64,000 nt of DNA from a virus. Positions within the stretch are counted from its first letter, which is position 1. Every line of letters starts with the position of its first letter. Both the position numbers and the translations under genes were made by a program. Below, in pieces: positions 15,229 to 41,044 of the stretch. The notes beneath the pieces are model-generated. The model made no database searches. It saw only the letters and a list, made by a program, of their open reading frames with translations, and had not been told where the DNA came from. The DNA lies in the UHGV virus genome UHGV-0293664; one strand, 5' to 3'.

Positions 15229-16710
15229 TTATTTAGCGTACTCGATTAATTCCACAGTTTTCCCAAAGCTCGGGATATAATTTTTATTATACCCCTCGGT
15301 GAGAACCCATAAAGTATCGTACTTTTTCCACTTGTTGTCAACAGCCTTTTGTTCAAAGTTATGCTCAAAGTATAGGTCGGTCAGGACGATGACATCTTTT
15401 GCATTCGGTATATTGGCATCCAGATACTCGAACACGCAAGCAGCTGTTGTGCCCCATGTTGAGTGGACCTCATAGTTGATCATCTCATCTATGTTACCGC
15501 GAGTGTATACTTTAACCTCTCCAACCTCAGTTGACCAACAGAACATTGTAACCTTAAACTCTTTATACAGATTGCACAATCCGGTGATTTCATTGAACAT
15601 TTTCTTTAAAGTTCTTTGAGAGATCGAGCCAGAAACGTCTAAAGCCACCACAATATCTATGGTGTTTTCCGGATTACGACCAGGAACAATAACGTGCTGG
15701 TTCTTGTTTATAGCCCCAACTTTTCGCATTGTGCTGGTCAAAGACCCAGATCGGCGACCAGGTTTTCTGTAGGTCAGTTCAGCCTTTCGTTTAGACAACA
15801 TGCGTTGCTTAATGATATCTATATAGTTGATTACAGGCTTGCCTCTGTTCTTGACAAACTCACGCACCGCCTCAGGGCAACGACCTCCGGAAGCTTGCAT
15901 TGCTGCCTCCAGCATGTCACCAGAATCCTGCATGGCCTGATCTTTATCAGATTGGCTGATTACAGGTTGTGGCCGATCATACCCCATAGCCTTCCCAAGA
16001 TCATCGCTGGTGCCACCGTTCCCGCTCATGTGATCATCGGTTTGTCGCTTATCTCCTTGGGAGTTATCACCTTTACCGCTCTTACTTTTACCGTTATTTT
16101 GATCTCTTTGCCTATCAAGAACTGCATAGACGTTCTCAGCAATCCATCCATGAAACTTCATGTCGCAGTAGCAGCTGGCTAAGAAACCAAAAGGCTTACC
16201 TTTTACGAACGTAGTGCTTTTCCCCTTCGGGAAGAAAACACAAGGGGGCTTGCTAAAGTCAACCACAAGACCTGTGTTGATAACGTGATCACAAGCAATA
16301 TTGAACAGTTCCGGCTCAAAGCTTTTGCCACGGACCAGGTGATCACAGATAATATGCCCCACCTCATGTGACAGAAGGAAAGCCACCTCTTTCACAGATT
16401 TGGGGGAATAGAAAACTTCAGCCATCTCAAACTGCTCTCCAGTTAGAGAGGCCTTGAGAATAGCCTTGCGTTCATCAGCCAACCCCATAATGAACTCAGG
16501 ACTGTAATAGATGCGTTTATGGTCGGTTGCCATGGTGGAGCACCATGTGTGGTTTTCTACGAACTGTAACCCTGACAGCAGTGTGCCATAAAACGGCAGC
16601 TTTTCAAGGAGATACATACGTGCAGCCTGTAACATTCTCAGGGCATCATCTTTCTGTGAGGCAATGATTTCTGAACTTCTGCTATCCATTAAAACTCCAG
16701 AAGGGGCCAT
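15229..16710 (-). CDS. vWA domain protein with N-terminal putative metallopeptidase-like domain (partner type of MoxR ATPases)
   Basis: 493 aa; HExxH-like HEVGHIICDH; MIDAS motif VVALDVSGSIS. Confidence 0.85.
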   Translation of the reverse strand: MAPSGVLMDSRSSEIIASQKDDALRMLQAARMYLLEKLPFYGTLLSGLQFVENHTWCSTMATDHKRIYYSPEFIMGLADERKAILKASLTGEQFEMAEVFYSPKSVKEVAFLLSHEVGHIICDHLVRGKSFEPELFNIACDHVINTGLVVDFSKPPCVFFPKGKSTTFVKGKPFGFLASCYCDMKFHGWIAENVYAVLDRQRDQNNGKSKSGKGDNSQGDKRQTDDHMSGNGGTSDDLGKAMGYDRPQPVISQSDKDQAMQDSGDMLEAAMQASGGRCPEAVREFVKNRGKPVINYIDIIKQRMLSKRKAELTYRKPGRRSGSLTSTMRKVGAINKNQHVIVPGRNPENTIDIVVALDVSGSISQRTLKKMFNEITGLCNLYKEFKVTMFCWSTEVGEVKVYTRGNIDEMINYEVHSTWGTTAACVFEYLDANIPNAKDVIVLTDLYFEHNFEQKAVDNKWKKYDTLWVLTEGYNKNYIPSFGKTVELIEYAK

Positions 16711-16722
16711 TGGCCCCTGTTA

Positions 16723-17712
16723 TTATTTAACGTGTTTGAAAATACCTGCCAACTCGGTCATTGTCATGCGGGTGGTCTTCATAAGATCTGTCATAGCTTT
16801 CTCCATAATTGGGGATACTACCATAAAGTTTCCTTTAGTGAAACCTTTATTCCAGTCGGTCACCAACAGTGGTTTAAGTCCAGCTCCGAGACGTTCACCA
16901 GTTAAAGCACAACATTTTCGAATGTATGTGCTCTTAAACTGGCTGAATGACAGATCCACTTTCATACCTGCATCGTAGAACGTCTGGCAATAGAAAGTGT
17001 AAGCTTTGGCAATCTCAACATCGTCAGGCAGTGCAGGAACCTCTTCTGTAAGCTCTTCTTCGACCCCTTGAGGCTCTTTTTCCTCTTCGTAAGCCTGTTG
17101 CGTCATCTCTTCAATCTCCTCTACTACAGGCTCGTTTACAATGTCAGAAATGTGCTTGTTGGCTCCACGATTAGCCATGAAGTTTTTAAAATCCTGCATT
17201 GGTGACATATCTTCCTCCCATTCTTCGTCAAAGAGTGCCAGTTTATCCTCTTCCGTTCCATATTGCAAGATGAAATCTTCAAAAGTGTAATCACCTTTCA
17301 ATTTCTCCATACGCTCTTCGCTCAGGTGGAGCATCATCTGCTGGACAATTTTTCGATCAGTTTTGTCTTTAATCAAGACTGCGGTCTTTTTATCTACCAG
17401 ACAGTCCTTTAGAGAGTTGCATCTCAACCCTACCACACAACAGTTATCAACCGCATAAGGGCCTTCATCATCTATCCGCTCTAGAGATGGGTAGAAAGGA
17501 TTTCCCAGTCCGTTTTCATCCGTGTGCATGTCGAAAGGTATAAGGGTATAGTCGCATACTCCATCTCCTAAAAGTTTTTTACCAAATAGGAGATATTCTT
17601 CCCATGACAGGTTGAACTCTATATCTCGTTTCCGTGCATTATTCTGTTTGCGTCTGTATTTTTTGAGCAAGCGCTCTAACTCTTCTGGTGTATAATATTT
17701 TTCAAGATTCAT
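16723..17712 (-). CDS. hypothetical acidic protein
   Basis: ORF track start at 17778 is TTG and overlaps a minus-strand promoter; ATG at 17712 (MNLEKYY...) lies downstream of that promoter. Confidence 0.7.
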   Translation of the reverse strand: MNLEKYYTPEELERLLKKYRRKQNNARKRDIEFNLSWEEYLLFGKKLLGDGVCDYTLIPFDMHTDENGLGNPFYPSLERIDDEGPYAVDNCCVVGLRCNSLKDCLVDKKTAVLIKDKTDRKIVQQMMLHLSEERMEKLKGDYTFEDFILQYGTEEDKLALFDEEWEEDMSPMQDFKNFMANRGANKHISDIVNEPVVEEIEEMTQQAYEEEKEPQGVEEELTEEVPALPDDVEIAKAYTFYCQTFYDAGMKVDLSFSQFKSTYIRKCCALTGERLGAGLKPLLVTDWNKGFTKGNFMVVSPIMEKAMTDLMKTTRMTMTELAGIFKHVK

Positions 17713-17743
17713 GAGTTGTCTCTTGTGCTCTGTGGGTGGAGAA

Positions 17744-17772
17744 ATCTTACCAAGGGCCTGGGAAGATGTCAA
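17744..17772 (-). promoter_or_regulatory. sigma70-like promoter for minus-strand operon
   Basis: TTGACA-17 nt-TAAGAT on minus strand. Confidence 0.6.
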
Positions 17773-17785
17773 CCTCAAAAACGTG

Positions 17786-21969: not shown

Positions 21970-22470
21970 GTGAAAATTAAGATCTTTGCTATTATTTTGA
22001 GCGCATTTTTATCGCTGCCTGTTGTTGCAGCACCAAAACAAAAAGTATATCATACTTGCAAGCCCTCAGATACTAAGGAAAACATTCTGGCATGCAATAT
22101 CTACAGGGAAGCTAGAGGGGATGGCACGATGGGTATGCTGGCATCTGGGTTTGCCACACTAAACAGGAAATCTCACCCCAAATACCCAGACACTATAAGA
22201 AAGATCGTCTACCAACCTAACCAGTTTTCGTGGACAAACCACGGCAAAACTTTTAAGGTGACAGAAAAAGATTCATGGGATCACGCTAAAAGTCTTGCAA
22301 AGATGCTTCTAAAGGTCTATAATAACAACCATGTTGCATACATGGCTATGGATATAACAGGTGGAGCAACACACTACCATACAACCAAAGTACGACCGAA
22401 ATGGGCAAAAAAGATGCAGAGGACAGCTCAATTCGGGAACCATATCTACTACAAGGAGCGCAATAAATGA
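21970..22470 (+). CDS. SleB-like cell wall hydrolase with N-terminal signal peptide
   Basis: GTG 21970 after GGAG; MKIKIFAIILSAFLSLPVVAAPK signal-like N-terminus; YREARGDG...LNR...YQPNQFSW matches Hydrolase_2/SleB pattern. Confidence 0.7.
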   Translation: MKIKIFAIILSAFLSLPVVAAPKQKVYHTCKPSDTKENILACNIYREARGDGTMGMLASGFATLNRKSHPKYPDTIRKIVYQPNQFSWTNHGKTFKVTEKDSWDHAKSLAKMLLKVYNNNHVAYMAMDITGGATHYHTTKVRPKWAKKMQRTAQFGNHIYYKERNK

Positions 22471-24449
22471 TCGTAAACAGTAATGAAACTAAAGCGGTAC
22501 TGACCGGGAATATGGAGGTCACCAGGGGCTCAATTTCTCTGAACAAAGAGACTTTTGGGCTAATCATTAAAGGGATTTACGAAGATAAGGTGCTGGCAAG
22601 CTGCCGTGAACCAATCTTCAATGCTGTGGACTCCCATGTTGAGTCTGGACGGGGTGATGTACCGATCATCATTCACTCTCCTACAGACCTTGAACCATAC
22701 TTCTTTGTGCAGGACGTTGGATTGGGCATGTCAGAAGAGATGGTCCGTAACACTTTCATGAACCTCGGGGAGTCAACCAAGCGCAACAGCAACGCCCTGG
22801 TTGGCAATAAAGGTGTTGGTTCAAAGGCCCCGTTCAGCATGGTGGACACTTTCGATGTGATCAGTGTGCACAATGGGGTTGAAAGCACATATCTATTGTT
22901 CTTGGATCAGGGTATCCCAAACGTTACCAAGATCCGCGAGCGGAAGACCGAAGAGCACAATGGGGTAAAAGTTCAGTTCCATGTTAAGAAAGAGCATGTT
23001 CTGAAATATCGCACTGCTATTGCGTCATGCCTACGCTATGCAAAGTTTCCGTTTACCGTTACCGACCCTATGACCAGTAAGATGCTGGAAGGTGACAAGG
23101 TTGAGGCGCAGTATCACTACGAGAAGGATGGTTGGAAAATGACCATCCTGAAAGGTTATACCAGCTCTGATGAGAGCCGTGTGGTGATGGGACACCAACC
23201 TTACCGCTCTAAGTTCCTGGAAACATTGACAGACTACCCTGCAATCTGTGTGGAGATCCCTATCGGGGATTGCAATATTAACCCTGGGCGCGAATGGACC
23301 ATAGAGGGTCACGACGATGGTGGATTCCAAGAGCGTCTGGAGGCTTTTGTCAAAGAGGGTATCCGTCTTCGTGGGGCAGAAGTTGTTGCGGAATTGGAAA
23401 CAGCAAAAACATCCTCAGAAGCACGCGAAATGATGAAGAACAGCGGAGTGTTCGGGCACATCTTCGGTAAGAATTTTATGTGGGAACGATGGGAAGAGAC
23501 AGGCCTAGGAAATTTGGGGGACTGTGAGATCTTCGCTGGCGGCTTAAATAAAGGCCGCATAGGTTACGCTTGTTACGGAAAGGTAGAATTCTTACGGGGA
23601 GTCTATTTAGTATTTAACGACGGAGACGGCAAATATAACCGAAATAAGTGTAACTACTTAAGCGAGATCACCGGACGCAACGTTTTCTATTGCCGGAACA
23701 CGGATCTGGTGAAAGAGTTTAAAGAGGCGGCACACCATCCGTTCTTTGCAGATACGATCAAATTGTTATCAGAGCTCCCTCGCCGACCTGCGAAGAAAGG
23801 TGAAACAAAAACTCATTATGAGCCAGGCTATTGGGTTAAAAAACTTGAGGATGATGGTTACTTCCGTCGTGAGCGTATTACTAAGGCAGAGTTCAAGAAG
23901 ATTAAGCACTGCATTCCTTATGAGGGCGATATCCAACGTGGAAGTTGTTGGCTGGGACAGCTGAGTAACATCTACCAGCAAAATTATGACCGTGTGCGTG
24001 CGGCACTCCAAATTCCTGAAGGTGAAGATCTGTACTTGGTATCAGAATCTCGTCTGCTTTGGACTGATCCTGATTGCCAGTATGTTACAGAGAAGAGTGT
24101 GGAACATTTGTTGAAAGAGGATGCTTGGAAATTCTTACTGACTCGCGCAGCAAATGAAACCTCATATGACAGCCTGTATAGACAATTAGGGAAAATTATC
24201 CCCATGCAAGATTTTGGAAATTATCGGCCACATTTCCACAAGTGGGAAGGTAACACCGCGTGGAAGCACAGTGAGCTAAATCATCGTGCCAAAATCTTAA
24301 TCGCCAACCGAGTTAAGTGCGGGAAGGCCTATATTGCAAGATTGGAAAAGAAATATCCACTTTTGAAGCATGTGGGCTTGAAATATTGGGACACTCCTGC
24401 TATGATTGAATACCGTGAACTGATTGATACAAAGAATAACACCAACTAA
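22467..24449 (+). CDS. GHKL-type ATPase domain protein
   Basis: 660 aa; Bergerat-fold motifs: N box E..FNAVDS, G1 VQDVGLGMS, G2 GNKGVGSKAPFS. Confidence 0.8.
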   Translation: MIVNSNETKAVLTGNMEVTRGSISLNKETFGLIIKGIYEDKVLASCREPIFNAVDSHVESGRGDVPIIIHSPTDLEPYFFVQDVGLGMSEEMVRNTFMNLGESTKRNSNALVGNKGVGSKAPFSMVDTFDVISVHNGVESTYLLFLDQGIPNVTKIRERKTEEHNGVKVQFHVKKEHVLKYRTAIASCLRYAKFPFTVTDPMTSKMLEGDKVEAQYHYEKDGWKMTILKGYTSSDESRVVMGHQPYRSKFLETLTDYPAICVEIPIGDCNINPGREWTIEGHDDGGFQERLEAFVKEGIRLRGAEVVAELETAKTSSEAREMMKNSGVFGHIFGKNFMWERWEETGLGNLGDCEIFAGGLNKGRIGYACYGKVEFLRGVYLVFNDGDGKYNRNKCNYLSEITGRNVFYCRNTDLVKEFKEAAHHPFFADTIKLLSELPRRPAKKGETKTHYEPGYWVKKLEDDGYFRRERITKAEFKKIKHCIPYEGDIQRGSCWLGQLSNIYQQNYDRVRAALQIPEGEDLYLVSESRLLWTDPDCQYVTEKSVEHLLKEDAWKFLLTRAANETSYDSLYRQLGKIIPMQDFGNYRPHFHKWEGNTAWKHSELNHRAKILIANRVKCGKAYIARLEKKYPLLKHVGLKYWDTPAMIEYRELIDTKNNTN

Positions 24450-24459
24450 GGAGACCAAG

Positions 24460-25665
24460 ATGATTTTCATCTACGAACATTTCAAAACTCGTAAAGAAGC
24501 ACGTGACCGCCGTGCAGAACTTGAGAAGAAGGGTTTCACATGTGCCATTGAGAAAGGTGATACAACCTGGACACTAGCAGTTGGTGCCCCAGAGCTGTTC
24601 GATCCTGACCGTGACAGCGTCTGCTACACCCGTGAGGATTTTGAAACCCGTGAAGAGGCCCGTTTATTTCGATATGGGCTGGAAGATAACGGTAAGTACG
24701 CCATGATCTTAGACTTAGGCGAAGGTTCCGTTAAACGTTGGGGCGTGGTATACCCACTGTGTGTTGTTCACGGTGTGGGGTTCACTGGTGTAGCAATCAA
24801 GTCAGAAGAACCTTTAGTAGAAGTCAAAGATCCGGTGCTGGAGGTGGTGAGCAGTGTGTCTCAGCAACAGACTCGAAGCATCGAGCCTTTGGTAGTTATT
24901 TGCGGAGAACTCCTCCAGATCACCTGCAACGAAGGCATTTTTGAAATTCGCCGCAGTGAAAGTGAGGAAGTTTACCAGAAAGTCTTTGACCATATCTCTG
25001 TTCAGGAATATGACGAGGCAATTGGTGAAATCCTTGTCTGGCTGGAACGCAAGAATGAGTTCACCACACTTGCAGACAACTTGATCATGAAAGATGGCAA
25101 GCTCTACTACTACGGCGTAGAGATGCGATCCACTATTGCAAAGAAAATTGAGAAAGACTATGCAGACGGAACATTGGATGACCGCTATGTGAAATTCCTC
25201 GTTCGACTGCTACGCAATCCATCTGCAAAATCTGTAAACATGCTCTACGATTTTATGCAGGCCAATGATATTCAGATTGCAGAAGATGGTCGAATCATTT
25301 GCTACAAAGGCGTTCAGTTTAACGGCAGCAAGTGGGTGGATTGGCACAGTGGTAAAGTCCCACAATACCAAGGTGCTTTTGTATCCATGCCTCGTAACTT
25401 TGTAGAGGATGATCCTGAAGCTGCGTGCTCCTATGGCTTACACTGCGCCAGCAAAGAGTATGCAAAGAGCTACGGCACTGTAATGACTGTTATGGTTGAC
25501 CCTGCAGATGTGGTTAGTGTGCCATACCAACACAATAGCGCTAAGTGCCGTGCATGCCGCTATGAGATTGTGGTAGCTCCGGAAGCACGCAAGGACGGCG
25601 ACCCGATTGAATACGTGGTTGACCGAGACGGTAACACTATCGACATTCTTTACGAGGAGGCGTAA
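24460..25665 (+). CDS. hypothetical protein
   Basis: ATG 24460 preceded by AAGGAG (track start 24424 is TTG inside upstream gene); 401 aa. Confidence 0.8.
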   Translation: MIFIYEHFKTRKEARDRRAELEKKGFTCAIEKGDTTWTLAVGAPELFDPDRDSVCYTREDFETREEARLFRYGLEDNGKYAMILDLGEGSVKRWGVVYPLCVVHGVGFTGVAIKSEEPLVEVKDPVLEVVSSVSQQQTRSIEPLVVICGELLQITCNEGIFEIRRSESEEVYQKVFDHISVQEYDEAIGEILVWLERKNEFTTLADNLIMKDGKLYYYGVEMRSTIAKKIEKDYADGTLDDRYVKFLVRLLRNPSAKSVNMLYDFMQANDIQIAEDGRIICYKGVQFNGSKWVDWHSGKVPQYQGAFVSMPRNFVEDDPEAACSYGLHCASKEYAKSYGTVMTVMVDPADVVSVPYQHNSAKCRACRYEIVVAPEARKDGDPIEYVVDRDGNTIDILYEEA

Positions 25666-27035
25666 TGGAAAAAGGGCAGTATGATGTAGGCACAGATGCT
25701 GCCCTTGTTGCAATCATGAGCGGTGAGAATGTCTTCGTTTCAGGACCCGCAGGTTGTGGGAAGACGTACCTCATCAACATGATCCAGTCAATGTATGGAG
25801 ACTCTTGCATAACGGTTGCCCCGACAGGGGTAGCCGCTTTAAACGTTAATGGAGCAACAGCACACCGAACCTTCGATCTTGCAGCAGGTGTGAGCATGGA
25901 GTCAGACTGGACCGCAATAAGGGCAAAAACAGCAAAGCCTTTGAAAAGCAAGGCATTTACCATCCTAATTATCGATGAAATCTCTATGATCCGTGCTGAT
26001 AAGTTTATAGAGATGGATAGGAAACTCCGCTTCCTTCGAAAAAATGACAAACCTTTCGGAGGCATACAGGTCATATTGTTTGGCGATTTTTACCAGGCAC
26101 CTCCTGTTGTCTCTTCTATGGAGAAGGAGGCCTACTTCAACTTCTACCACACAGACCTATGTTGCTATACCGAATCTTGGAAAGAGCTTGACCTTCACAA
26201 CATAGCCCTAATAGACCAGTTCCGACAGGAGTCTATTCGATTTGCCACAATGCTCAACTGTGTTCGTGAGGGTCGTCGCATAAAAGAGGTTGTAGCAGAA
26301 CTTAATGCTCGCTGTTACAAAGGCGGTGTACCAACAGACGCTCTCACAATTTGCGCCACCAACAAACAAGCAGAGGAAGTGAACAGAAGGTTCTATGATG
26401 CCATCAACGCCCCAGAGAAGGTATACACTGGTGAAATGAAGGGTAAGTTTCCCTCCACCCTGCCAGTGGAGCAGGAGATGAAGTTGAAAATTGGCATGAA
26501 AGTTATGATAACCGCCAACGATGTTGACCCGACGCACAAAGTACCTTATTATGTTAACGGAACACGTGCCACAATTGTTAAATTTAAGAACAAGGCGGTG
26601 GTGGTAGAGCTTGAAGATGGAACACAGGTTGACATAGAGCAGAGGTTGTGGGAGAATAACGAGTATAAGCCATCTCAGAGATACAACATTGCAGAAAGGA
26701 AGATGGAGAAGTTTATAGAGAGGGTAGTGATTGGGTCATACAAGCAACTTCCTCTGAAATCTGGGTACGCCGTAACATCTCATAAAAGTCAAGGACTTAC
26801 GTTAGATTGTTACAACCTAGACCTTGGAAAGAACGGAGCTTTCTCTCCTGGTATGACGTATGTTGCTTTGAGTAGAGTTAAGACAATACAAGGAATAAAC
26901 TTGTTGCGTCCACTAAGAGAGGTTGACATTATTGTTGACCCGCGAGTCGTAGAGTTTTACAATACAACATTCCCTGACTTAGACAAAATTGTCAGGAAAG
27001 ATTTTGAAACCAGAGCAGAAGAGGGGGACGTATGA
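25665..27035 (+). CDS. SF1B DNA helicase (Dda/RecD/Pif1-like)
   Basis: 456 aa; Walker A GPAGCGKT; Walker B IIDEISM; TSHKSQG motif. Confidence 0.9.
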   Translation: MEKGQYDVGTDAALVAIMSGENVFVSGPAGCGKTYLINMIQSMYGDSCITVAPTGVAALNVNGATAHRTFDLAAGVSMESDWTAIRAKTAKPLKSKAFTILIIDEISMIRADKFIEMDRKLRFLRKNDKPFGGIQVILFGDFYQAPPVVSSMEKEAYFNFYHTDLCCYTESWKELDLHNIALIDQFRQESIRFATMLNCVREGRRIKEVVAELNARCYKGGVPTDALTICATNKQAEEVNRRFYDAINAPEKVYTGEMKGKFPSTLPVEQEMKLKIGMKVMITANDVDPTHKVPYYVNGTRATIVKFKNKAVVVELEDGTQVDIEQRLWENNEYKPSQRYNIAERKMEKFIERVVIGSYKQLPLKSGYAVTSHKSQGLTLDCYNLDLGKNGAFSPGMTYVALSRVKTIQGINLLRPLREVDIIVDPRVVEFYNTTFPDLDKIVRKDFETRAEEGDV

Positions 27036-28677: not shown

Positions 28678-29289
28678 TTGAAATTTATATACAAAGAACA
28701 CTACCACAAAGGTGTTGTGTGGAGTCTATTTGACGGGTCTGGTGGTGCAGTCATTGACTGGGCAAAAGCTGGGTACCTGTGCCTGTGCTTTAATGCAGAA
28801 GGTGCTGATCACGGCAGTTATGCAGAGGTGATCACCGATCATCCCAACATTCACTATGTTGATTATTGGATTGACCCATGGTTCCCTCAGGAAACTTTTT
28901 GCATGTACCCAGCTCCAGACTTTATTCTTGCATTTCCTCCGTGCACGCATTTAGCGGTGTCAGGTGCTGCACATTTTAAGAAAAAGCTGGCTAAGGACCC
29001 CCTGATCCAAATTAATGCTGTAAAGGATGCTCGGGTTGCGGAAGAGCTGGGAGAGATTTACGATTGCCCGTGGCATGTAGAGAATCCTGTGGGTGTTATG
29101 TCCACACTGTGGCGCAAACCTGTCCCGCAAATAGTTGACGTGGTTAGCGGGTATTCCATGCAACACGCCAAGCTGGGTGGAAAGAGTGCAAGAACGAAGA
29201 TGATTCGAAGCCTCACACCACGTGGCTGGGCAAAAGCCGTATTCTTAGCAAACGAGCCTGTAGTAAGGAGCAGAATTAATGGGAAGTAA
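28678..29289 (+). CDS. DNA cytosine-5 methyltransferase-like protein (catalytic core only)
   Basis: Motif I LFDGSGG...AG; motif IV FPPCTHLAVSG (PC dipeptide); motif VI HVENPVG; start uncertain (TTG 28678 after AGGAG; track start 28648 lies inside terminator). Confidence 0.7.
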   Translation: MKFIYKEHYHKGVVWSLFDGSGGAVIDWAKAGYLCLCFNAEGADHGSYAEVITDHPNIHYVDYWIDPWFPQETFCMYPAPDFILAFPPCTHLAVSGAAHFKKKLAKDPLIQINAVKDARVAEELGEIYDCPWHVENPVGVMSTLWRKPVPQIVDVVSGYSMQHAKLGGKSARTKMIRSLTPRGWAKAVFLANEPVVRSRINGK

Positions 29290-31357
29290 ATTTATGGCAT
29301 CTGCATACAACCGTTTCGGCGAGCCAAACCCGAAAGCAACTAAGTATAAAAGTGGGGGAAGTGTGAAACGAGACTATCGTGATGAAAAAGAAGTTGAAAC
29401 TGTAGAGACTGTTTTAGAAAATACTAAAATTGTCCCTGTCCCACAACAGAATATCGGTCTGATGGCTGCACAATATTTTGGTGTGCGATCAGCATTGTCC
29501 CAAGAAGACGGTGTGACAGTCACTGCAACATATTTCCCATATTACGACCGCTACGGAAATCTGTCCGGTTTCAAAAAGCGTGACTGGACTATTCCTAAAG
29601 AGCAAAGGGGCCATTTCTCCGTTGTTGGCATCGTAAAGGCCAACTCCCAGATGTTTGGTCAAAAGCTGTGTGCATCTTCCAACAACCGTAAGCAGATCAA
29701 CGTTTGTGAGGGAGAAGGTGATGTTATTGCAGCATGGCAGGCTGCATATCAGATACAAGTAAAAGGGATTCTCACCAATGCTAAAGCCCCGGCAAAGGTG
29801 AAGCAGTGGGCTAAAGAGGTCCAGGACGGGATCGATGCAGTTATCAACGGCGGTGATCTGGCAGGAAAACCCTGCCTGCCTTTTGTTGGAATTAACTGTG
29901 GATGTGCAAACGCAGTAGATACTTTTGCAAACAATGAGAAGTTTATCCGTAGCTATGGAACAGTTGTGCTGGCAATGGATAACGATGCAGCTAACGAGGT
30001 AGAGAAGCAAAAACACGTCATTAAAGGTGTTGAGGCCACGCACAATATCGCAGCATTTTTAATGGCTGATAACGTTTACCACGTAGAATACCCTGGTGAA
30101 GTAAACGACCCTGACGGTGTAAAAGATATCCGAGACATGCTGAAGGCTAAAAAGCTGGAAGATATTGTCAACATGTTCCGGCATCCTGTTAAATATGTGC
30201 CTGATGCTGTGTCGGATTTAGAAGACTTCTCTATCGAGTCTTTGCGGAAAAAGACTTCCAACGGGGTAGATATCAGTGCAGAGTTCCCAAAACTGCAAAA
30301 AATGCTAAAAGGCTTGCACAAAGGGACACTTGTAATGCTTACAGGTCCATCAGGCGGCGGTAAAACAACCGTGGCTAAAAAACTGGAACACTGTATTGCA
30401 AGATACCTAATGGACCCGACATGCCAGAAGGCTGATGACTATGAAGAGGATGATCGTCTATGTATGATCCATCTTGAGGAGGACCCAGAGGAAGCAATTA
30501 ACTCCTTGTATGCAAACCAGTTAGGGTTTGATGTTAAAGAGTTTGTTGAAGATCCTAGCCAGTTTTTAACTGATCAAGAACACGCAGAGATTCACCAATC
30601 ATGGGCAAAAGCTGGAAAAATCAAAGTGTTCAAACATTTCGGATCTATTCCGGTGGACGAGTTGATTACCAAGCTTAAGCAAATGGTTTGCCTGTACCAT
30701 TGCCGTTATATTGTGCTGGATCACCTGTCCATGGTAATTTCAGGGCTTAATGTTAAGGATGAGCGAAAAGAACTGGACATGGCTATGACTCAGCTGGCTG
30801 CGTTTTGTAAGCAGTTTAACGTGTTTATCTTGGTGATCGCTCACCTCAAACGTACAGAGATTGTGCCTCCTAAGGACAAGGATGGTAACCCGTTACCTTT
30901 CTGGTATCCTGTGCGAAAAGAGAATTTGCGAGGATCGGCGGGGCTTGAACAGTTGAGTTGGGTAGTCATAGGTGTCGAGGCCGAAGAAATGGTGGATCGT
31001 TCTCGTGGACGTGTCCGTCTGGTAGGTCTTAAAAACCGTCCAGCAAAAACTCTAGGTATTGCTGACACTTTGGTTATGGACCCGCACACAGGTAAGTTCC
31101 ATGATGCCAGTAATTGGTACTGGGACAAAGAAATGCAAATGTTTACAGACGGAGAAGGTGGGGAGGTTGTTTGGAGACCTCAGGCTATGTTTGAGGATCA
31201 GGAGCATGCAGTTGTAGAAACACCTATGGGCAAGGTTGTGGCTGATAAGGTTGTAACTCCTACTGTTAAGTCTGTTGACACGCAGGAAGACCTCCAGTAC
31301 GATGATCCATCCTCTGACCCGGTCCCCGGTTTTGAGGATGATGAAACGCCTTTTTAA
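29279..31357 (+). CDS. bifunctional DNA primase-helicase (TOPRIM primase + DnaB-like helicase)
   Basis: 692 aa; TOPRIM-like CEGEGD and MDNDAANE; Walker A TGPSGGGKTT. Confidence 0.9.
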   Translation: MGSKFMASAYNRFGEPNPKATKYKSGGSVKRDYRDEKEVETVETVLENTKIVPVPQQNIGLMAAQYFGVRSALSQEDGVTVTATYFPYYDRYGNLSGFKKRDWTIPKEQRGHFSVVGIVKANSQMFGQKLCASSNNRKQINVCEGEGDVIAAWQAAYQIQVKGILTNAKAPAKVKQWAKEVQDGIDAVINGGDLAGKPCLPFVGINCGCANAVDTFANNEKFIRSYGTVVLAMDNDAANEVEKQKHVIKGVEATHNIAAFLMADNVYHVEYPGEVNDPDGVKDIRDMLKAKKLEDIVNMFRHPVKYVPDAVSDLEDFSIESLRKKTSNGVDISAEFPKLQKMLKGLHKGTLVMLTGPSGGGKTTVAKKLEHCIARYLMDPTCQKADDYEEDDRLCMIHLEEDPEEAINSLYANQLGFDVKEFVEDPSQFLTDQEHAEIHQSWAKAGKIKVFKHFGSIPVDELITKLKQMVCLYHCRYIVLDHLSMVISGLNVKDERKELDMAMTQLAAFCKQFNVFILVIAHLKRTEIVPPKDKDGNPLPFWYPVRKENLRGSAGLEQLSWVVIGVEAEEMVDRSRGRVRLVGLKNRPAKTLGIADTLVMDPHTGKFHDASNWYWDKEMQMFTDGEGGEVVWRPQAMFEDQEHAVVETPMGKVVADKVVTPTVKSVDTQEDLQYDDPSSDPVPGFEDDETPF

Positions 31358-31415: not shown

Positions 31416-32150
31416 ATGAACGAGTTCAGAGATCACTGTGTAGCCAATCACTTGTGGTCAGAGATATTGGAGTATGACGGTCAAAATCTTTTTTGGAAGA
31501 TAGACATTCTGGCAGGTAGCGGTGTAGGATATGTTAAAACTTCAGCAGGCTCTAGAGCTGACAAGGGGCAAGATGCTGATGGCAGGCCTGTGGTCAGTCT
31601 AGGAAAGCATTGCACTAAAGGTGCCCACGTCATAATTTGGGAAATGTTTAACGGTCCTGTACCGGAAGGGTATGAGGTTGACCACATCAAGGAGATAAGA
31701 GAAACAGGTGGTGTGGCTGATAACAGTATTCAAAATTTGCAACTGCTCGAGCCTACAGATAACAAAAAGAAAAGTTGCAAGATACCTCGTAGTAACAACA
31801 AGTCTGGTAGGGTCGGGGTGCACTATTCTGAAGAAAGAGAGGCATGGATAGCTCAAGGCACAGATTCTGCAGGTGAAAGAGTCTGGCTAGGCCAGTACAG
31901 AACTTTTGAAGAGGCAGAGTGGGCAAGAAAGTTCTTCGAAGATAATGGTTTTTCGCACAAGAGTGGAAGAGCCGTGCAGTATAATAACACCAGCGGTTGC
32001 TCAGGGGTGAATTGGGATAAAACCCATGAAAGATGGGTAGCCAGAATTTATGTAGATGGTAAAAGGAAATGCCTTGGGTATTTCAAGAACAGAGAAGATG
32101 CAATAGCTGCAAGAAAGAGTGCTGAGAAGAAACAGGAGGAGACAGTATGA
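31416..32150 (+). CDS. HNH homing endonuclease with AP2-like DNA-binding domains
   Basis: 244 aa; HNH core EVDHIKE...N..NLQLL; two AP2-like repeats (GVHYSEEREAWIAQ..., GVNWDKTHERWVARIYVDGKRKCLGYF). Confidence 0.85.
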   Translation: MNEFRDHCVANHLWSEILEYDGQNLFWKIDILAGSGVGYVKTSAGSRADKGQDADGRPVVSLGKHCTKGAHVIIWEMFNGPVPEGYEVDHIKEIRETGGVADNSIQNLQLLEPTDNKKKSCKIPRSNNKSGRVGVHYSEEREAWIAQGTDSAGERVWLGQYRTFEEAEWARKFFEDNGFSHKSGRAVQYNNTSGCSGVNWDKTHERWVARIYVDGKRKCLGYFKNREDAIAARKSAEKKQEETV

Positions 32151-34924
32151 GTAATTGGTGCTTCGACTTGGAGGCCTCCGGGCTTTTGGAAGACCCAGAT
32201 CTTTATTATCACTGCGGTCTGTTTAAAGAGCTGAATAAGAACCGTTTTATGCTGTTCCTTCCTCTAAATGACCGCACACACTACTCCGAGGAGGATATAG
32301 AGAAGGCTAAGAACTTTATTCTGGCAAAGAAAACTCTTTATAAAGATTTTGAAGTTCGCATAGCAGATTTTTCGGAGTTGGAAGGTTGGCTTACAGGCAA
32401 TTCCGACTGGTCACCAACAGCTTTGAACTGCCATAACTGCTACAGTTATGACTTTATGCTAATGGAAAGATTGTCCGGTATTCATTTTGATATGTTCCGT
32501 GATCCTAAATGCATGGGGACTATCAACGACCACCAGGTTAACCTGTTTGATACGTTGGCGATGAGCCGAATCTTGTGGCCTGATCGCCCTTTACCAAAAG
32601 GTTGTCCGGACTCTGTATTCAACCCGGTTACTAAGAAAATGCAGCCTGTTGGTCCTCACGGCCTTATGGCATGGGGCTACGCCCTTGGTAACCAGAAAGT
32701 TCAAATTGATGACTGGCGTGATCTTCCGTTGTGGAAGTATGTGGATCGTGTATTCGAGGACGTTATCATCCAAGAGCTGCTCTGGAAAGAGCTGGTAGCG
32801 GAATCAAAAGGTGTATTCTACGGCAAATCTGACATGCAGAACTTTATGTACGATCCTGCCAAAGAGAAGCCGAAAGGGTTCAAGAAGATCACCTGGAAGA
32901 ACGCATTACGCCGAGGCATGCTGCAGCACTTCCTGATGGAGCTGCAGGCCCGTCAGGGTGTGTATTTCGACATAGATGGAGCTATTGCTTTACGTGACCG
33001 TTGCGATGCGTGGATGAAAGAGATCGCTGATCGTGTTGAACCTCAACTTCCTTTAAAAGAGTTGTCAATGTCTCAGCGGCCCAAGTTCCCTGAAAAGCCG
33101 TTTAACCAAGATGGGACAATCTCCAATAATGGTTGGAAATGGTTAAAAGATAAGCTTGGCTATCCTGTGGACATGAGCGCTTTAGAGTTCAAAGCCCCGC
33201 CTAAGCGAGCATTTACCTCCACAGGGGATGTCAGTAAGATGGGGATAAAGTGGTGTGAAGAGATGGGCTGCAAAGACCCAGATAAGATGGCTGATTTCTT
33301 GAGAGGCTATATTAAGGGCACCTCCACACCACAACCTTTACCTAAAGAGCTAATGGATCAGGCAATAAGTGATCTACAGCAGAAGCGAATGCCGGACTGC
33401 AAGATACCTATGAAAATCAGCAATCAGGACGACATTAAGAGATACCTGATCAGTGCTGGTTGGCTTCCGACAATGTGGAGAACTAAGGATGTAACTAAAG
33501 ACAGCAAGAAGAAAGCTCTACCTGATGCAGATGTTGATGCACGAGTGTATGCATATATGGACGAGCTTTTAGAGTCAGAGTATTGTGACCTAATTATCAA
33601 CTTCTGGAACAAAACTGATGCTAAGTTCCAGACAACCGTGCACAAGTTCCGAAGCTTTCCTAACTCTGAAAGGATTAAAAAGGAAGTATTCGGGAAAATA
33701 CGTAGAAAAGCTAGGACACTTATTACTTCTCCGCAGCTGAAAGATACGTTTGGACACCTATGCCCGAATCTTGAAAAATTGAACGGGGAGATGGCTAAAG
33801 ATATCGTCTTGTGGTTATCATTGCGAAACCGCAGATCGGTCCTTGATCCAATCAAGGAGGATAAGGTTGATACTGGTCTTCTTAATCACCCACGTTTGAA
33901 GATTGACCATAAGCTTCCGGCTAAAAGCTCTGGATTAACAAACACTTCCAGACAGAAACACAGTATTTGTGCAAACATGCCTAAACCATCTCCTAAAGTG
34001 GTTATGGGTAAAGAGATGCGCAGTCTGTGGGGTGTTCCTCCAGGATACTTTGAGATCGGTATTGACGGGTCCAACTTAGAGCAGCTTATCGGGGCTTGGG
34101 GTGCCTTTGAGTTCGACAACGGCTTGTATTATGATGTTGTAAGTAACGGGGACGCACACCAAAACAATGCTGAGGCATATACAAAAGTAGCAGGCAGAGA
34201 GGTGTCTCGTAACGACGGTAAACCTATCACGTATGGGGTTATGTATGGGGCACAAAAAGACAAAGTTGCAGACATGCTGGATATCTCCCCAGAGTTGGGA
34301 CAAAGGGTAATCGATGCACTTTGGGATGCCAACCCCGGTCTTAAGGGGCGTAAAGAAGATCTGGAGAAATTCTGGGAAGCAACGGGTAAGAAGTTTATCT
34401 ACTCTTTTGATGGTCATGCTATCTGGACCCGATCTAAACACTCTTTACTTAATGCATACCAACAGAATGGTGGTGCATCGTTGTGTGACTTAGTTGGGAT
34501 ACTCATGCACCACCAAATGGTGAAGCGCGGGTGGTACGATGAAGGTGTTCGTCGTATTATTTATTACCATGACGAATATCAGCTTCAAGTCCCTGACACA
34601 CCTAAGTATAAGACTGTGTACACCTTCGACACAATTGAAGAACTGGAAGCATTTAAGGCAGAGCAGGAGGCCAAACTTCATGTGTTCGACGGTCATAAGT
34701 ACAAAAAGGCACGCAAGGATGAGGACGGAAACGAAGTGGTTGACAGAGACGGAAACACGGTGTACGATCCTATCCTGAACGATGACGGAAAGCTTGAACT
34801 TATCTGGAGCCCTGTGGGTGAAATGGTGGTGCATTGCTTCTGGCAAGCTTCTAAAATGATGGGAGTCCCGTTCCAGATCACAGGTGAATACTTGTGCGGT
34901 CGTAATTGGGGTGATTGTCACTAA
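32147..34924 (+). CDS. DNA polymerase, family A, with 3'-5' exonuclease domain
   Basis: 925 aa; exo I-like FDLEASG; motif A-like IDGSNLEQL; O-helix-like KPITYGVMYG; motif C YYHDEYQL. Confidence 0.9.
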   Translation: MSNWCFDLEASGLLEDPDLYYHCGLFKELNKNRFMLFLPLNDRTHYSEEDIEKAKNFILAKKTLYKDFEVRIADFSELEGWLTGNSDWSPTALNCHNCYSYDFMLMERLSGIHFDMFRDPKCMGTINDHQVNLFDTLAMSRILWPDRPLPKGCPDSVFNPVTKKMQPVGPHGLMAWGYALGNQKVQIDDWRDLPLWKYVDRVFEDVIIQELLWKELVAESKGVFYGKSDMQNFMYDPAKEKPKGFKKITWKNALRRGMLQHFLMELQARQGVYFDIDGAIALRDRCDAWMKEIADRVEPQLPLKELSMSQRPKFPEKPFNQDGTISNNGWKWLKDKLGYPVDMSALEFKAPPKRAFTSTGDVSKMGIKWCEEMGCKDPDKMADFLRGYIKGTSTPQPLPKELMDQAISDLQQKRMPDCKIPMKISNQDDIKRYLISAGWLPTMWRTKDVTKDSKKKALPDADVDARVYAYMDELLESEYCDLIINFWNKTDAKFQTTVHKFRSFPNSERIKKEVFGKIRRKARTLITSPQLKDTFGHLCPNLEKLNGEMAKDIVLWLSLRNRRSVLDPIKEDKVDTGLLNHPRLKIDHKLPAKSSGLTNTSRQKHSICANMPKPSPKVVMGKEMRSLWGVPPGYFEIGIDGSNLEQLIGAWGAFEFDNGLYYDVVSNGDAHQNNAEAYTKVAGREVSRNDGKPITYGVMYGAQKDKVADMLDISPELGQRVIDALWDANPGLKGRKEDLEKFWEATGKKFIYSFDGHAIWTRSKHSLLNAYQQNGGASLCDLVGILMHHQMVKRGWYDEGVRRIIYYHDEYQLQVPDTPKYKTVYTFDTIEELEAFKAEQEAKLHVFDGHKYKKARKDEDGNEVVDRDGNTVYDPILNDDGKLELIWSPVGEMVVHCFWQASKMMGVPFQITGEYLCGRNWGDCH

Positions 34925-37654: not shown

Positions 37655-37737
37655 CAAATACCTATTGTAATTTGCAGAAGGGGATGCTAAAATAGTGTCT
37701 CCTTTTATGTTGTTCAAATAAAATCGGAGATTCCATA

Positions 37738-38103
37738 ATGGAACAAATGAACGATCAAACGTCGGTTGCGATGAACGAGCAAGAACAACCTCAAGAATTT
37801 TTCTTAGGGTTAAGTAAAGATCAAGTGTCTCTTCTGCTAGTGCTTTCTTCTTTCATGGGAAGACTTCAGGAGCTTACACAACAGCCAGAGGCTGAACAAT
37901 TATTCCAGGCTCTGCGTGAAGAAGAAAAATATCGTCGTTTGGACTATGCCTTAGGTTGGGTAGCTCAACAACGAGATATGCTGATGGCCCTCTCTGGGAC
38001 CACAAGTTTTGCAATGGGCCTGTTGGCTCAAGTTCAGGACAAATTAATTCAAGCAGGGTTTGCACACACGGCAAACACTAACGAAGAACAAGGAGACAAA
38101 TAA
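37738..38103 (+). CDS. hypothetical protein
   Basis: 121 aa; SD CGGAGA. Confidence 0.7.
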   Translation: MEQMNDQTSVAMNEQEQPQEFFLGLSKDQVSLLLVLSSFMGRLQELTQQPEAEQLFQALREEEKYRRLDYALGWVAQQRDMLMALSGTTSFAMGLLAQVQDKLIQAGFAHTANTNEEQGDK

Positions 38104-39329
38104 TGAGCGTTATTCAACAATTCGCTAACCCGATGAATCCGCGTGAAACTGTTTTACTGGCTCACGGCATGATTAAACGTGTCAGCATCAAGCCTATCAA
38201 GGGTGCTGATCCTACAACAGGTATTAAAACCACTGTGTGGCAAGGTAAGAAAATTGAATCCAGCCACACCATCTCTTTACTGATTTCTGAACTGGATTCC
38301 TCTGATAACCTGCTTCAAGGTGGTGAAGAAGTTTGGATCAGTATGGGTGATAAGCTGCTTAAACCTGGTCATCAAGACTCTGTCTCTGTTAAAATTGATG
38401 ACAAGTGGGAAACCGTAACGCCGGGATGGATCGTAAATATCCCTTTGAAGGCAAACGAGCATAAAGGTAAGACCTATTACAAAGGCTCACTGGCTAAGAT
38501 GGTCAAGCTGGGTGCAGGAGAGGCTCCAGCAGCGACTCAGCAGCAAAAACAGCAACAAGGTGCACAATCACAAGGCCAGAAGCAGAAACCTCAGCAGAAT
38601 GCCAATCAGGACGTTTTACGCATCTATGGTGATGTGACTCAGATTGTTGGCAACGTGGTTACTGTTAATGACCACAAGATTGGCGAAGGTGCTATGGTTG
38701 TCACTGATGAGCAGCTTAAAGACCTGGTGGTAGGTGGTCGTGTTGCAGCCATTGTTGACAAAGACACCGGAAACATTATCAGTGGTTTCAAAGCCTACCC
38801 ACCTAAGGAAGAGAACGGCACTCAAGGCTCTGGTGGCAAGCGTAAATCCTCTTACGACCCTATCGGTGTGGAAACGGGGCATAGCATCAATGCGTTGCAG
38901 ATCATCCTGGATCGCGGGTTTAAGGTAGACGACCCACTGGGCGTGGCTAAAACACTGCACGTAGTCACCATTGAGCTTAAGAAAGAGTATGCTCAAGCCA
39001 CCAACCGAACTGAAGATGAAGTAGGTGCCAGTGTCGGTAATGCGGTGTTGAACGCTTGTCGCCGTATTGACAAGAAAACGAAAGTTGATGATTTTGCAGC
39101 GGCAATTACTGCAGAAGCAAAAGATGTCTTGACTAATCTGGCTGAGCCGTTGTACGATTGGATCAAGAACGGTGCTGGGTCAACTGACCATCAAGAACCT
39201 CAGGCTGCCAAACAGGAAGCAGCTCCACAGCAAAACACTGTAGACGCTCCTCCTGTAAATGATGAGGAAGATGACCCAATGGATCAGAATCCAGCACAGT
39301 ACGCCTTTGATGATGACATCCCTTTTTAA
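38103..39329 (+). CDS. single-stranded DNA-binding protein-like, with bacterial SSB-type C-terminal tip
   Basis: 408 aa; ends ...AQYAFDDDIPF (same acidic tip as E. coli SSB); Gln-rich linker; N-terminal region OB-fold-like. Confidence 0.8.
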   Translation: MSVIQQFANPMNPRETVLLAHGMIKRVSIKPIKGADPTTGIKTTVWQGKKIESSHTISLLISELDSSDNLLQGGEEVWISMGDKLLKPGHQDSVSVKIDDKWETVTPGWIVNIPLKANEHKGKTYYKGSLAKMVKLGAGEAPAATQQQKQQQGAQSQGQKQKPQQNANQDVLRIYGDVTQIVGNVVTVNDHKIGEGAMVVTDEQLKDLVVGGRVAAIVDKDTGNIISGFKAYPPKEENGTQGSGGKRKSSYDPIGVETGHSINALQIILDRGFKVDDPLGVAKTLHVVTIELKKEYAQATNRTEDEVGASVGNAVLNACRRIDKKTKVDDFAAAITAEAKDVLTNLAEPLYDWIKNGAGSTDHQEPQAAKQEAAPQQNTVDAPPVNDEEDDPMDQNPAQYAFDDDIPF

Positions 39330-39345
39330 CAATTAGTTAACATAG

Positions 39346-39373
39346 CCCTGCCCGAAAGGGTGGGGCATTTTTG
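39346..39373 (+). terminator. intrinsic terminator with GAAA tetraloop (copy 2 of 2)
   Basis: Same CCCTGCCC-GAAA-GGGTGGGG hairpin as 28634, then CATTTTT. Confidence 0.75.
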
Positions 39374-40170: not shown

Positions 40171-40596
40171 ATGACCTATGAAATGCCAAAACTGATTCGT
40201 GACGATGCCCAAAACGCCCACACCTTTATCATGGGCAAACGCATGGATATTATTTGTCATAAAGATTTCTGGGAAGGAAGTTACTTCACAGAGTATTTTG
40301 GTAAACTGGACAATGGTCTGCTGATCCAGTTCTACACCGATGCGGAAAACAACATTCACTGGGAGTTCGAAACTGAAGATATCCATAAACTTTTCACCTT
40401 CCTCGGTATTAAGGTTGAGGCCAAGTTTGAAGAAGGTGAGTGCGACGATTGTGGATTCTATGAGGTAACAGATTTCTATCTCCCGAGTGGTGAGAACCTT
40501 TACTATGAAAGCCACTTCGGTAACTCCAATATGCCACAGTGCTGGACTGAGTTTTTTGAAATTGCGGAAGAGGAGCTGGCATACCGTGATTATTGA
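40171..40596 (+). CDS. hypothetical protein
   Basis: 141 aa; SD CGGAGAA. Confidence 0.75.
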   Translation: MTYEMPKLIRDDAQNAHTFIMGKRMDIICHKDFWEGSYFTEYFGKLDNGLLIQFYTDAENNIHWEFETEDIHKLFTFLGIKVEAKFEEGECDDCGFYEVTDFYLPSGENLYYESHFGNSNMPQCWTEFFEIAEEELAYRDY

Positions 40597-41044
40597 TACT
40601 GTAGAGGGGGATTTAATCTCCCTTTTTAAGAGCGGTGCTGGTCACCTGATCCACGGTTGCAACTGCTTCCACACAATGGGCAAGGGGATAGCAAAACAGA
40701 TCGCCCGTGAGTTCCCTCAAGCACTGGCAGCTGACAAAGAGACCAGACATGGTTGCCTAAGTAAACTGGGCGCGTTCTCAAGATGGGAGCACTTATCTCC
40801 GATAGGTATTGTCTACGGAATAAATCTGTATACTCAGTTCTACCCAGGGCCTAATGCTGAATATTTCTCAATCCTGAAAGGCTTTGAGCGAGTCAATGAG
40901 GTATTCGAGGGATCGACTTTACCATTCTACATCCCTAAGATCGGGTGCGGCATAGGCGGTTTGAAGTGGGAACACGTAGAGGACGTTATTAACCTTGCCA
41001 CTTTCGACATAGATATTGTCGTGGTGGAGTACAAAAAGTGTTGA
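40586..41044 (+). CDS. macro domain protein, TARG1/OARD1-like (ADP-ribose processing)
   Basis: GTG 40586 after AGGAG; GDLISLF...HLIHGCNCFHTMGKGIAKQIAREFP and IPKIGCGIGGLKWEHVEDVI match TARG1-type macro domain pattern. Confidence 0.75.
   Translation: MIIDTVEGDLISLFKSGAGHLIHGCNCFHTMGKGIAKQIAREFPQALAADKETRHGCLSKLGAFSRWEHLSPIGIVYGINLYTQFYPGPNAEYFSILKGFERVNEVFEGSTLPFYIPKIGCGIGGLKWEHVEDVINLATFDIDIVVVEYKKC

Follow-up and report, generated by a model that had tools for sequence, protein, structure and literature searches.

A 64,000-nucleotide (nt) stretch of viral DNA, UHGV virus genome UHGV-0293664 (hereafter the window, meaning the whole stretch that was analysed), represents an rV5-like Vequintavirus and carries on its plus strand, at 38103..39329, the coding sequence of a 408-residue protein that resembles a single-stranded DNA (ssDNA)-binding protein (SSB). 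Our analysis suggests that this SSB-like protein is the replicative SSB of the phage, that it bears a docking tip identical to that of the host SSB for use with host SSB partners and possibly with the phage polymerase, and that it is sensed by the defence system DRT10. We give this reading a probability of roughly 70%.

The open reading frame (ORF) begins with ATG and its product ends in ...NPAQYAFDDDIPF*; the codons of the final FDDDIPF occupy 39306-39326 and the TAA stop codon 39327-39329. These last seven residues are those of Escherichia coli SSB. An AAGGAG ribosome-binding site lies 5' of the ATG, and the ATG overlaps the stop codon of the preceding ORF as TAATG. Translation and codon positions thus bear out the first-pass annotation of the window, in which a 408-amino acid (aa) ORF at 38103-39329 with an FDDDIPF end had been noticed and interpreted as an oversized, SSB-like mimic of host SSB. 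By sequence the protein is the orthologue of Bas52_0087 and of phrog_4477, and in essentially all rV5-like genomes with near-identical copies the gene is labelled 'hypothetical'.

Residues P407 and F408 do not vary among 23 homologues with identities down to 36%, and the alignment of these homologues gives the tip consensus [FWY]-D-[DE]-[DS]-[IVL]-P-F. In a set of 200 family C-termini, 149 end in PF, 141 in [ILVM]PF and 44 in DDDIPF, and six end in PPMDFDDDIPF, the same final 11 residues as in E. coli SSB. In a complete genome 98% identical to the window (C12), 1040 ORFs reach a length of 50 aa or more, and only 2 of them were found to have an acidic tail with a PF ending. Judged by these counts, the tip match is not due to chance. 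Partners of bacterial SSB hold the ultimate Phe in a hydrophobic pocket, where basic residues may contact the C-terminal carboxyl (PMC3632105).

To describe the rest of the protein, an AlphaFold2 model was built from the 23-sequence alignment (mean predicted local distance difference test score (pLDDT) 73.6; predicted template modelling score 0.38, so that the packing of the domains against each other is unreliable). All parts are encoded on the plus strand. A first β-barrel (OB-fold 1; aa 1-139, 38103..38519; pLDDT about 80-90, net charge +4) is followed by a disordered Gln-rich linker (aa 140-169, 38520..38609; pLDDT 30-37, 13 Gln in 30 residues), the length of which differs among homologues, and then by a second, small β-barrel (OB-fold 2; aa 170-236, 38610..38810; pLDDT about 80-87) with a conserved GFKAY motif. 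Beyond a short disordered linker (aa 237-248, pLDDT below 50) lies a four-helix bundle (aa 250-358, 38850..39176; pLDDT about 90) with helices at residues 253-270, 278-299, 304-321 and 328-355, and the protein closes with a disordered acidic tail (aa 359-408, 39177..39326; pLDDT 30-40, net charge -12) ending in FDDDIPF. Hence the expectation that a protein of this size would have extra domains was correct, the small second barrel and the bundle being those domains. The tip follows 50 residues with pLDDT below 50, the arrangement of a disordered linker and a terminal D-D-D-[IL]-P-F-COOH that is characteristic of SSB. The long Gln/Ala-rich linker that had been described in front of the tip needs correction in one respect: the long tail is present, strongly acidic and containing Pro, Ala and Gln, but the strongly Gln-rich part is the linker between the barrels. 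An origin of the two barrels by duplication was considered and rejected, since no similarity between barrel 1 and barrel 2 was detectable.

In the model the SSB-like protein has the OB-fold core of a canonical bacterial SSB. Structural matches of OB type were Bacillus subtilis SsbB and Thermus SSB (7.4), PriB (7.3) and E. coli SSB 1kaw (7.1), together with RPA, Stn1, RecO and MCM OB domains. Foldseek against the PDB gave a best E-value of 0.04, which is not significant, and its output (IF1, EF-P/eIF5A, RPA and two DUF2815 phage proteins) was used only as a qualitative list of OB folds. Against BFVD, Foldseek returned homologues that were all 'uncharacterized' and a weak second tier of DUF2815, 'phage ssDNA-binding domain', LEF-3 and SSB. 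Of the checks that the first-pass annotation had proposed, the structure prediction thus yielded two OB-like β-barrels, and the hidden Markov model search for the SSB family yielded no PF00436 match at E<=10; indeed, a Pfam search found no family at all even at E<=10, and sequence and profile searches of the PDB found no match for the folded parts. With hhalign, only the last 25 columns aligned with E. coli SSB (probability 89%, E 2e-6). The OB assignment therefore rests on the predicted fold, not on sequence, and the description 'SSB-like' stands for fold and conserved tip but not for sequence membership in a canonical SSB family, as only the last ~25 residues align.

The SSB-like protein belongs to a phage-specific family outside Pfam, phrog_4477, which it matches over its full length in PHROGs (E 8.3e-173, residues 1-408 against profile positions 1-393) and which is annotated there as 'unknown function'. 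Searched with a profile and without filters, 1.84 billion representative proteins yielded 176 clusters. Most relatives are of 260-310 aa, and in them a single N-terminal barrel precedes the bundle and the acidic tail; barrel 2 is missing from most short members. The rV5/Certrevirus group has both the Gln linker and barrel 2 in addition. What is conserved most widely in the family is the core of bundle and tail, and most profile matches align to the bundle. Within it lie the motifs YDxxGVxxGH and EPLYxWI, which contain D252 and Y351; among the 23 aligned homologues Y351 is invariant and D252 is kept in at least 90%. The window protein shows this family signature, a four-helix bundle with D252 and Y351 and a tail ending in [ILV]PF.

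The SSB-like protein is identical at 404 of 408 positions to Bas52_0087 (QXV84166.1) of the BASEL phage RudolfGeigy/Bas52, from which it differs only by K121N, E236A, A369T and A401S. A preprint of 30 April 2026 (bioRxiv 10.64898/2026.04.29.721553) reported Bas52_0087 as the trigger of DRT10 (UG17) defence: two independent Bas52 mutants that escape DRT10 carried D252V and Y351C in Bas52_0087, and wild-type Bas52_0087 supplied in trans enhanced DRT10 restriction. In the same study, host ExoI/SbcB suppressed DRT10 toxicity and overexpression of SbcB weakened the defence. With Phold and AlphaFold2 its authors described an 'SSB-like architecture' of two OB folds, a four-helix bundle, a disordered region and an FDDDIPF C-tip, and they raised the possibility that Bas52_0087 competes with or displaces SbcB. 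Both escape positions fall within the four-helix bundle of the window protein (D252, 38856-38858; Y351, 39153-39155; plus strand). Given 99% identity to Bas52_0087, the window protein would likewise be required for DRT10 triggering. In the literature, phage SSBs recur as triggers of reverse-transcriptase-based and other defences, and gp2.5-type SSBs trigger Retron-Eco8 and Hachiman. The observation made in the first pass is thus real and the structural part of its interpretation is supported. Its mechanistic part, mimicry of host SSB, is plausible but unproven: the bacterial-type tip is conserved throughout the family, and the same hypothesis was put forward independently for Bas52_0087 with respect to ExoI/SbcB. 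The core idea has already been published for this 99%-identical protein and is hence not new.

We infer ssDNA binding and every contact between tip and partner in the following scheme. One or both OB-like barrels would coat ssDNA at the phage replication fork. The four-helix bundle, to which both DRT10 escape mutations map, may mediate self-association or contacts with partners. The disordered acidic tail would present the amphipathic ...FDDDIPF-COOH tip, which could dock into the basic-rimmed hydrophobic pockets of partners. Because E. coli SSB carries the very same tip, these partners very probably include host ExoI/SbcB, the chi subunit of Pol III, DnaG, RecQ and PriA. The tip may also couple the SSB-like protein to the phage family-A polymerase, in the manner of T7 gp2.5 and gp4, a possibility raised by a T7-like replisome and by a primase-helicase with a related acidic ...PF tail. 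The DRT10 reverse-transcriptase defence may then sense the build-up of the SSB-like protein on ssDNA, its pull on ExoI, or both.

The replisome evidence is as follows. The primase-helicase of the window (29279..31357, plus strand; Pfam DnaB_C and AAA_25) is related to T7 gp4 (phmmer E 5.6e-18 for the C12 orthologue), and the family-A DNA polymerase (32147..34924, plus strand; Pfam DNA_pol_A) to T7 gp5 (E 6.7e-17 for the C12 orthologue, 6e-18 for the best domain of the window protein). The acidic tail of the primase-helicase ends in ...GFEDDETPF (codons 31331-31354), and a C-terminal PF behind an acidic tail (e.g. ...FENDTPF) recurs in 112 of 120 homologues, with identities as low as about 42%. 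The T7 tails, as read from the record, are ...EEADEDGDF in gp2.5 and ...DWSNDTDF in gp4; the gp2.5 tail and a gp4-tail peptide both use the front basic patch of the T7 polymerase (PMC12339929). With an acidic tail that ends in an aromatic residue, a similarly tailed helicase-primase and a family-A polymerase, the window shows the hallmarks of a gp2.5-like arrangement. The analogy suggests that the tails may dock onto the phage's own family-A polymerase as in T7, as an alternative or a complement to competition with the host, and makes this polymerase a candidate docking partner of both.

Carried to its end, this analogy leads to another explanation, in which the protein is a phage SSB with a T7-style, purely phage-internal role: its tail couples it to the polymerase and primase-helicase of the phage, and its tip came to resemble that of the host by convergence, as a generic 'acidic plus PF' docking peptide, without meaningful use of host SSB partners. 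The T7 homologies, the helicase tails and the shared use of the T7 patch all favour it, as does the lack of toxicity of Bas52_0087 expressed alone. We nevertheless consider it unlikely, since the family copies the bacterial consensus more exactly than a generic tail would need, as the counts of DDDIPF, PPMDFDDDIPF and a hydrophobic residue at position -3 given above (44, 6 and 141 of 200) indicate, whereas helicase tails are almost never of bacterial type ([ILVM]PF in 1 and DDDIPF in none of 120). Position -3 is I, L or V in the SSB-like family, as in bacterial SSBs, and T, S, E or C in the helicases; this difference argues that the two tails are under different constraints and that the SSB-like one is under an additional constraint of host type. 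Moreover, DRT10 is tied genetically to a host SSB partner, ExoI/SbcB, and the T7 basic patch appears to be largely missing from the aligned polymerase region, where VKWKRRW meets a 6-residue gap and only GKKF aligns with KRRW in a weak pairwise alignment.

The C-terminus is also the site of a mobile element. Some family members end in ...IPF-AP[IV]GLQYxxxxI[YH]x[LI], and in JES2013, rV5 (V5), EmilHeitz/Bas49 and others a homing endonuclease gene (~600 nt; labelled 'endonuclease VII' or 'putative homing endonuclease') stands exactly after the PF codon. The stop codon is usually replaced by a 45-nt in-frame module, which adds 15 residues (APVGLQYGKSRIYAL), gives the masked C-terminus ...DDIPFAPVGLQYGKSRIYAL and also holds the endonuclease start codon in another frame. 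The endonuclease/module junction corresponds to position 39326/39327 of the window, which has no endonuclease insertion there, and to L002 2528-3170, L013 1404-2043, L012 1252-1841, L007 7183-7230 and L006 5017-5064. The element is present in 52 phage records; in each of the 25 listed, the alignment starts at the first base of the extension. In HeinrichReichert/Bas58 the same endonuclease (88% identical) occupies the same site, and the stop codon is kept directly after ...EFDDSIPF. DrSchubert, like Bas49, has a masked tip, and Bas52 has a free tip and no endonuclease. In L007 the module remains after the SSB-like gene without the endonuclease, the reading frame of which is truncated, as in a footprint; in L006, a contig of another phage, the module ends a primase-helicase gene, and an HNH gene follows. 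We also considered the 15 residues after PF as a native functional extension and rejected this, as the 45-nt module travels with the endonuclease and has left a footprint in L007. The candidate endonuclease target in the SSB-like and helicase genes is GATGATGA(C/T)A(T/C)(C/G)CC(T/G)TT(T/C)-stop.

Because SSB partners take up the ultimate Phe in a pocket (PMC3632105), masked variants are predicted to bind these partners poorly. A bolder version of our reading can be built on this prediction: the tip would be a functional plug into the SSB interactome of E. coli, ExoI/SbcB above all, and the endonuclease a natural switch, its 15-residue in-frame footprint masking the tip in many rV5-like phages and altering both partner capture and recognition by defences that sense the tip or ssDNA, such as DRT10. 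We regard this version as quite doubtful. If it were true, a selfish element would modulate the interplay of phage and defence, and two distinct replisome genes would be homing sites of a single endonuclease family, at the sequence that encodes 'D-D-x-P-F-stop'.

Two further explanations dispense with a general replicative SSB. In the first, the protein serves as a decoy for the SSB interactome of the host or hijacks it, for takeover or counter-defence, with barrels that serve mainly as a scaffold and a tip that sequesters or redirects ExoI, RecQ and PriA. The exact match to the host tip agrees with it, and so do the proposal that Bas52_0087 competes with or displaces SbcB and the weakening of DRT10 by SbcB overexpression. 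The SSB-like protein is, however, the only SSB candidate found in the genome with E. coli SSB and gp2.5 as queries, its genes lie within replication modules across distant relatives, its expression alone leaves host viability unaffected and masked-tip natural variants are common. Both escape mutants moreover carry missense mutations that lie in the bundle, and neither is a knock-out or alters the tip, which with n=2 is weak evidence for an essential gene. A decoy in place of a replicative SSB therefore seems very improbable to us. In the second, the protein is a recombination mediator or annealing protein, either with a RecO-like layout of OB and helical parts or as a gp2.5-like annealase; the annotation of T7 gp2.5 indeed names annealing as well as ssDNA binding. 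We consider this idea extremely unlikely, as RecO binds the SSB tip and does not itself carry one. The structural matches to RecO span only 76-85 residues, probably the OB part alone, and with the same two queries no other SSB was found against which a mediator could act. RecO is, moreover, among the partners of the SSB C-terminus (PMC3632105).

Several observations weigh against a replicative SSB with a host-type docking tip. At least 25 close relatives, the type phage rV5 included, have 15 residues beyond PF; with so many viable masked-tip relatives, the exposed tip is not indispensable for phage viability. Bas52_0087 alone neither harmed cells nor triggered DRT10 (10.64898/2026.04.29.721553), which speaks against the view that it strongly titrates essential SSB partners of the host. 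By charge computation, barrel 2 and the bundle are net acidic. The barrels have no sequence homology to any known SSB family in Pfam, PDB or hhalign comparisons, and hhalign against T7 gp2.5 gave a probability of only 0.3%. The polymerase region that docks the T7 tails is, in a weak alignment, poorly conserved in the window polymerase. Finally, the uniqueness of the SSB candidate has a limit: E. coli SSB and T7 gp2.5 queries (phmmer, filters off) found no other in the window and genome C12, and the search did not extend to other SSB types, for example that of T4 gp32.

The position of the gene speaks for a role in replication. It closes a same-strand block with rIIA/rIIB-like genes, a Pif1 helicase, methyltransferases, the primase-helicase, an HNH endonuclease, the family-A polymerase and small ORFs. 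An rIIA-like gene with a GHKL ATPase domain (22467-24449) and an rIIB-like gene (24424-25665) lie just upstream of the Pif1-type helicase (25665-27035), and a homing-endonuclease-like ORF with HNH_3/AP2 domains (31416-32150) separates primase-helicase and polymerase. In phage Murica this last ORF is absent and the two replication genes are adjacent. Immediately upstream of the SSB-like gene is a 121-aa ORF (phrog_7310; 37738..38103, plus strand), which is, to judge from the TAATG overlap, translationally coupled to it. A homologue of this ORF in a distant relative (L007 5650-6000; 28% identity, E 1e-9) ends one base before the SSB-like gene P0044, which suggests that the 121-aa ORF is a conserved partner. 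The pair is bracketed by terminator-like hairpins, one at 37676-37706 in front of the 121-aa ORF and one with a T-run at 39345..39372 (plus strand) directly 3' of the SSB-like gene; in relatives, a homing endonuclease separates this region from the PF codon. Certrevirus CR3 has the same gene layout as the window. Of the short family members, P0128 adjoins a family-A polymerase and a dCTP deaminase, and P0118 has RNR/ThyX on one side and, on the other, a DsbA-like gene, a 5'-3' exonuclease and a ligase.

Over 3.5 kb, many Escherichia phages match the window with 98-99% identity. The same identity extends to some records labelled Campylobacter phage: about 16-21 such GenBank records (MG0656xx, e.g. 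MG065635.1) are marked UNVERIFIED, give Campylobacter jejuni as the host and are 98% identical to rV5-like coliphages, and they look mislabelled or contaminated. Elsewhere in the window, a Macro-domain protein (40487-41044; 'phosphatase' in Murica), about 1.2 kb 3' of the SSB-like gene, could be an ADP-ribose-processing or counter-defence enzyme. On the strand opposite to the replication block, a DUF2201 metallopeptidase/VWA-like ORF (15229-16710, minus strand) adjoins a 351-aa ORF without a Pfam match (16723-17778, minus strand). An 1875-aa ORF (4765-10392) presumably encodes a structural or fibre protein; Pfam recognises in it only a Big_2 Ig-like domain and, overlapping with it near the C-terminus, a weaker Ig-like match. 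No tRNAs were found in the window.

Phage SSBs are abundant and essential, and bacterial immunity has repeatedly used them as infection signals. The phrog_4477 family, although outside Pfam, probably provides the replicative SSB of rV5-like phages and a trigger of defence. If the host-identical tip engages ExoI and other SSB partners, this would give a mechanistic account of how DRT10 links host exonuclease activity to the sensing of infection, and the natural masked-tip and free-tip variants are ready material for a test. Hundreds of phage records would gain from the label 'SSB-like protein (Bas52_0087 family)'. Less expected were three findings: the helicase, too, has an acidic-PF tail, the SSB-like family is broad although unannotated, and a tip-masking homing endonuclease targets the sequence encoding the tail.

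Among known systems, Bas52_0087 is the closest, with the same gene position, length and predicted architecture as the window protein and with D252 and Y351 present. The preprint on it contributes genetics (DRT10 escape and SbcB dosage); the wider family, the helicase tail and the endonuclease-masked variants are not described there. With E. coli SSB (PF00436) the SSB-like protein has in common an OB-fold module, predicted here, a disordered linker and the terminal FDDDIPF, and some members of the phrog_4477 family share its last 11 residues. However, E. coli SSB has 178 aa and one tetramerising OB domain, compared with 408 aa, two different barrels and a four-helix bundle in the SSB-like protein, and homology to PF00436 is undetectable in the sequence of the barrels.

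In a comparison with T7, gp2.5 and the SSB-like protein each have a disordered, acidic tail with Phe as its last residue, gp4 and gp5 have homologues in the phage helicase and polymerase, and the ...NDTDF of gp4 has its counterpart in the ...NDTPF or ...DDETPF of the helicases of this group. In contrast, gp2.5 has no sequence similarity to the SSB-like protein (phmmer with filters off, hhalign), its tip is ...GDF instead of the bacterial-type hydrophobic-Pro-Phe, the SSB-like protein has extra domains, and the front basic patch of the T7 polymerase is not clearly conserved in the window polymerase, as far as a weak alignment can tell. Phage SSBs of the DUF2815/Enc34 type (PDB 4klk, 4jg2) were among the Foldseek matches in the PDB and BFVD as OB-fold phage ssDNA-binding proteins; these matches were weak (E about 0.01-0.3), the SSB-like protein has no Pfam match, and they imply neither a helical bundle nor a bacterial-type tip, the two features that accompany the predicted OB folds in the protein described here.

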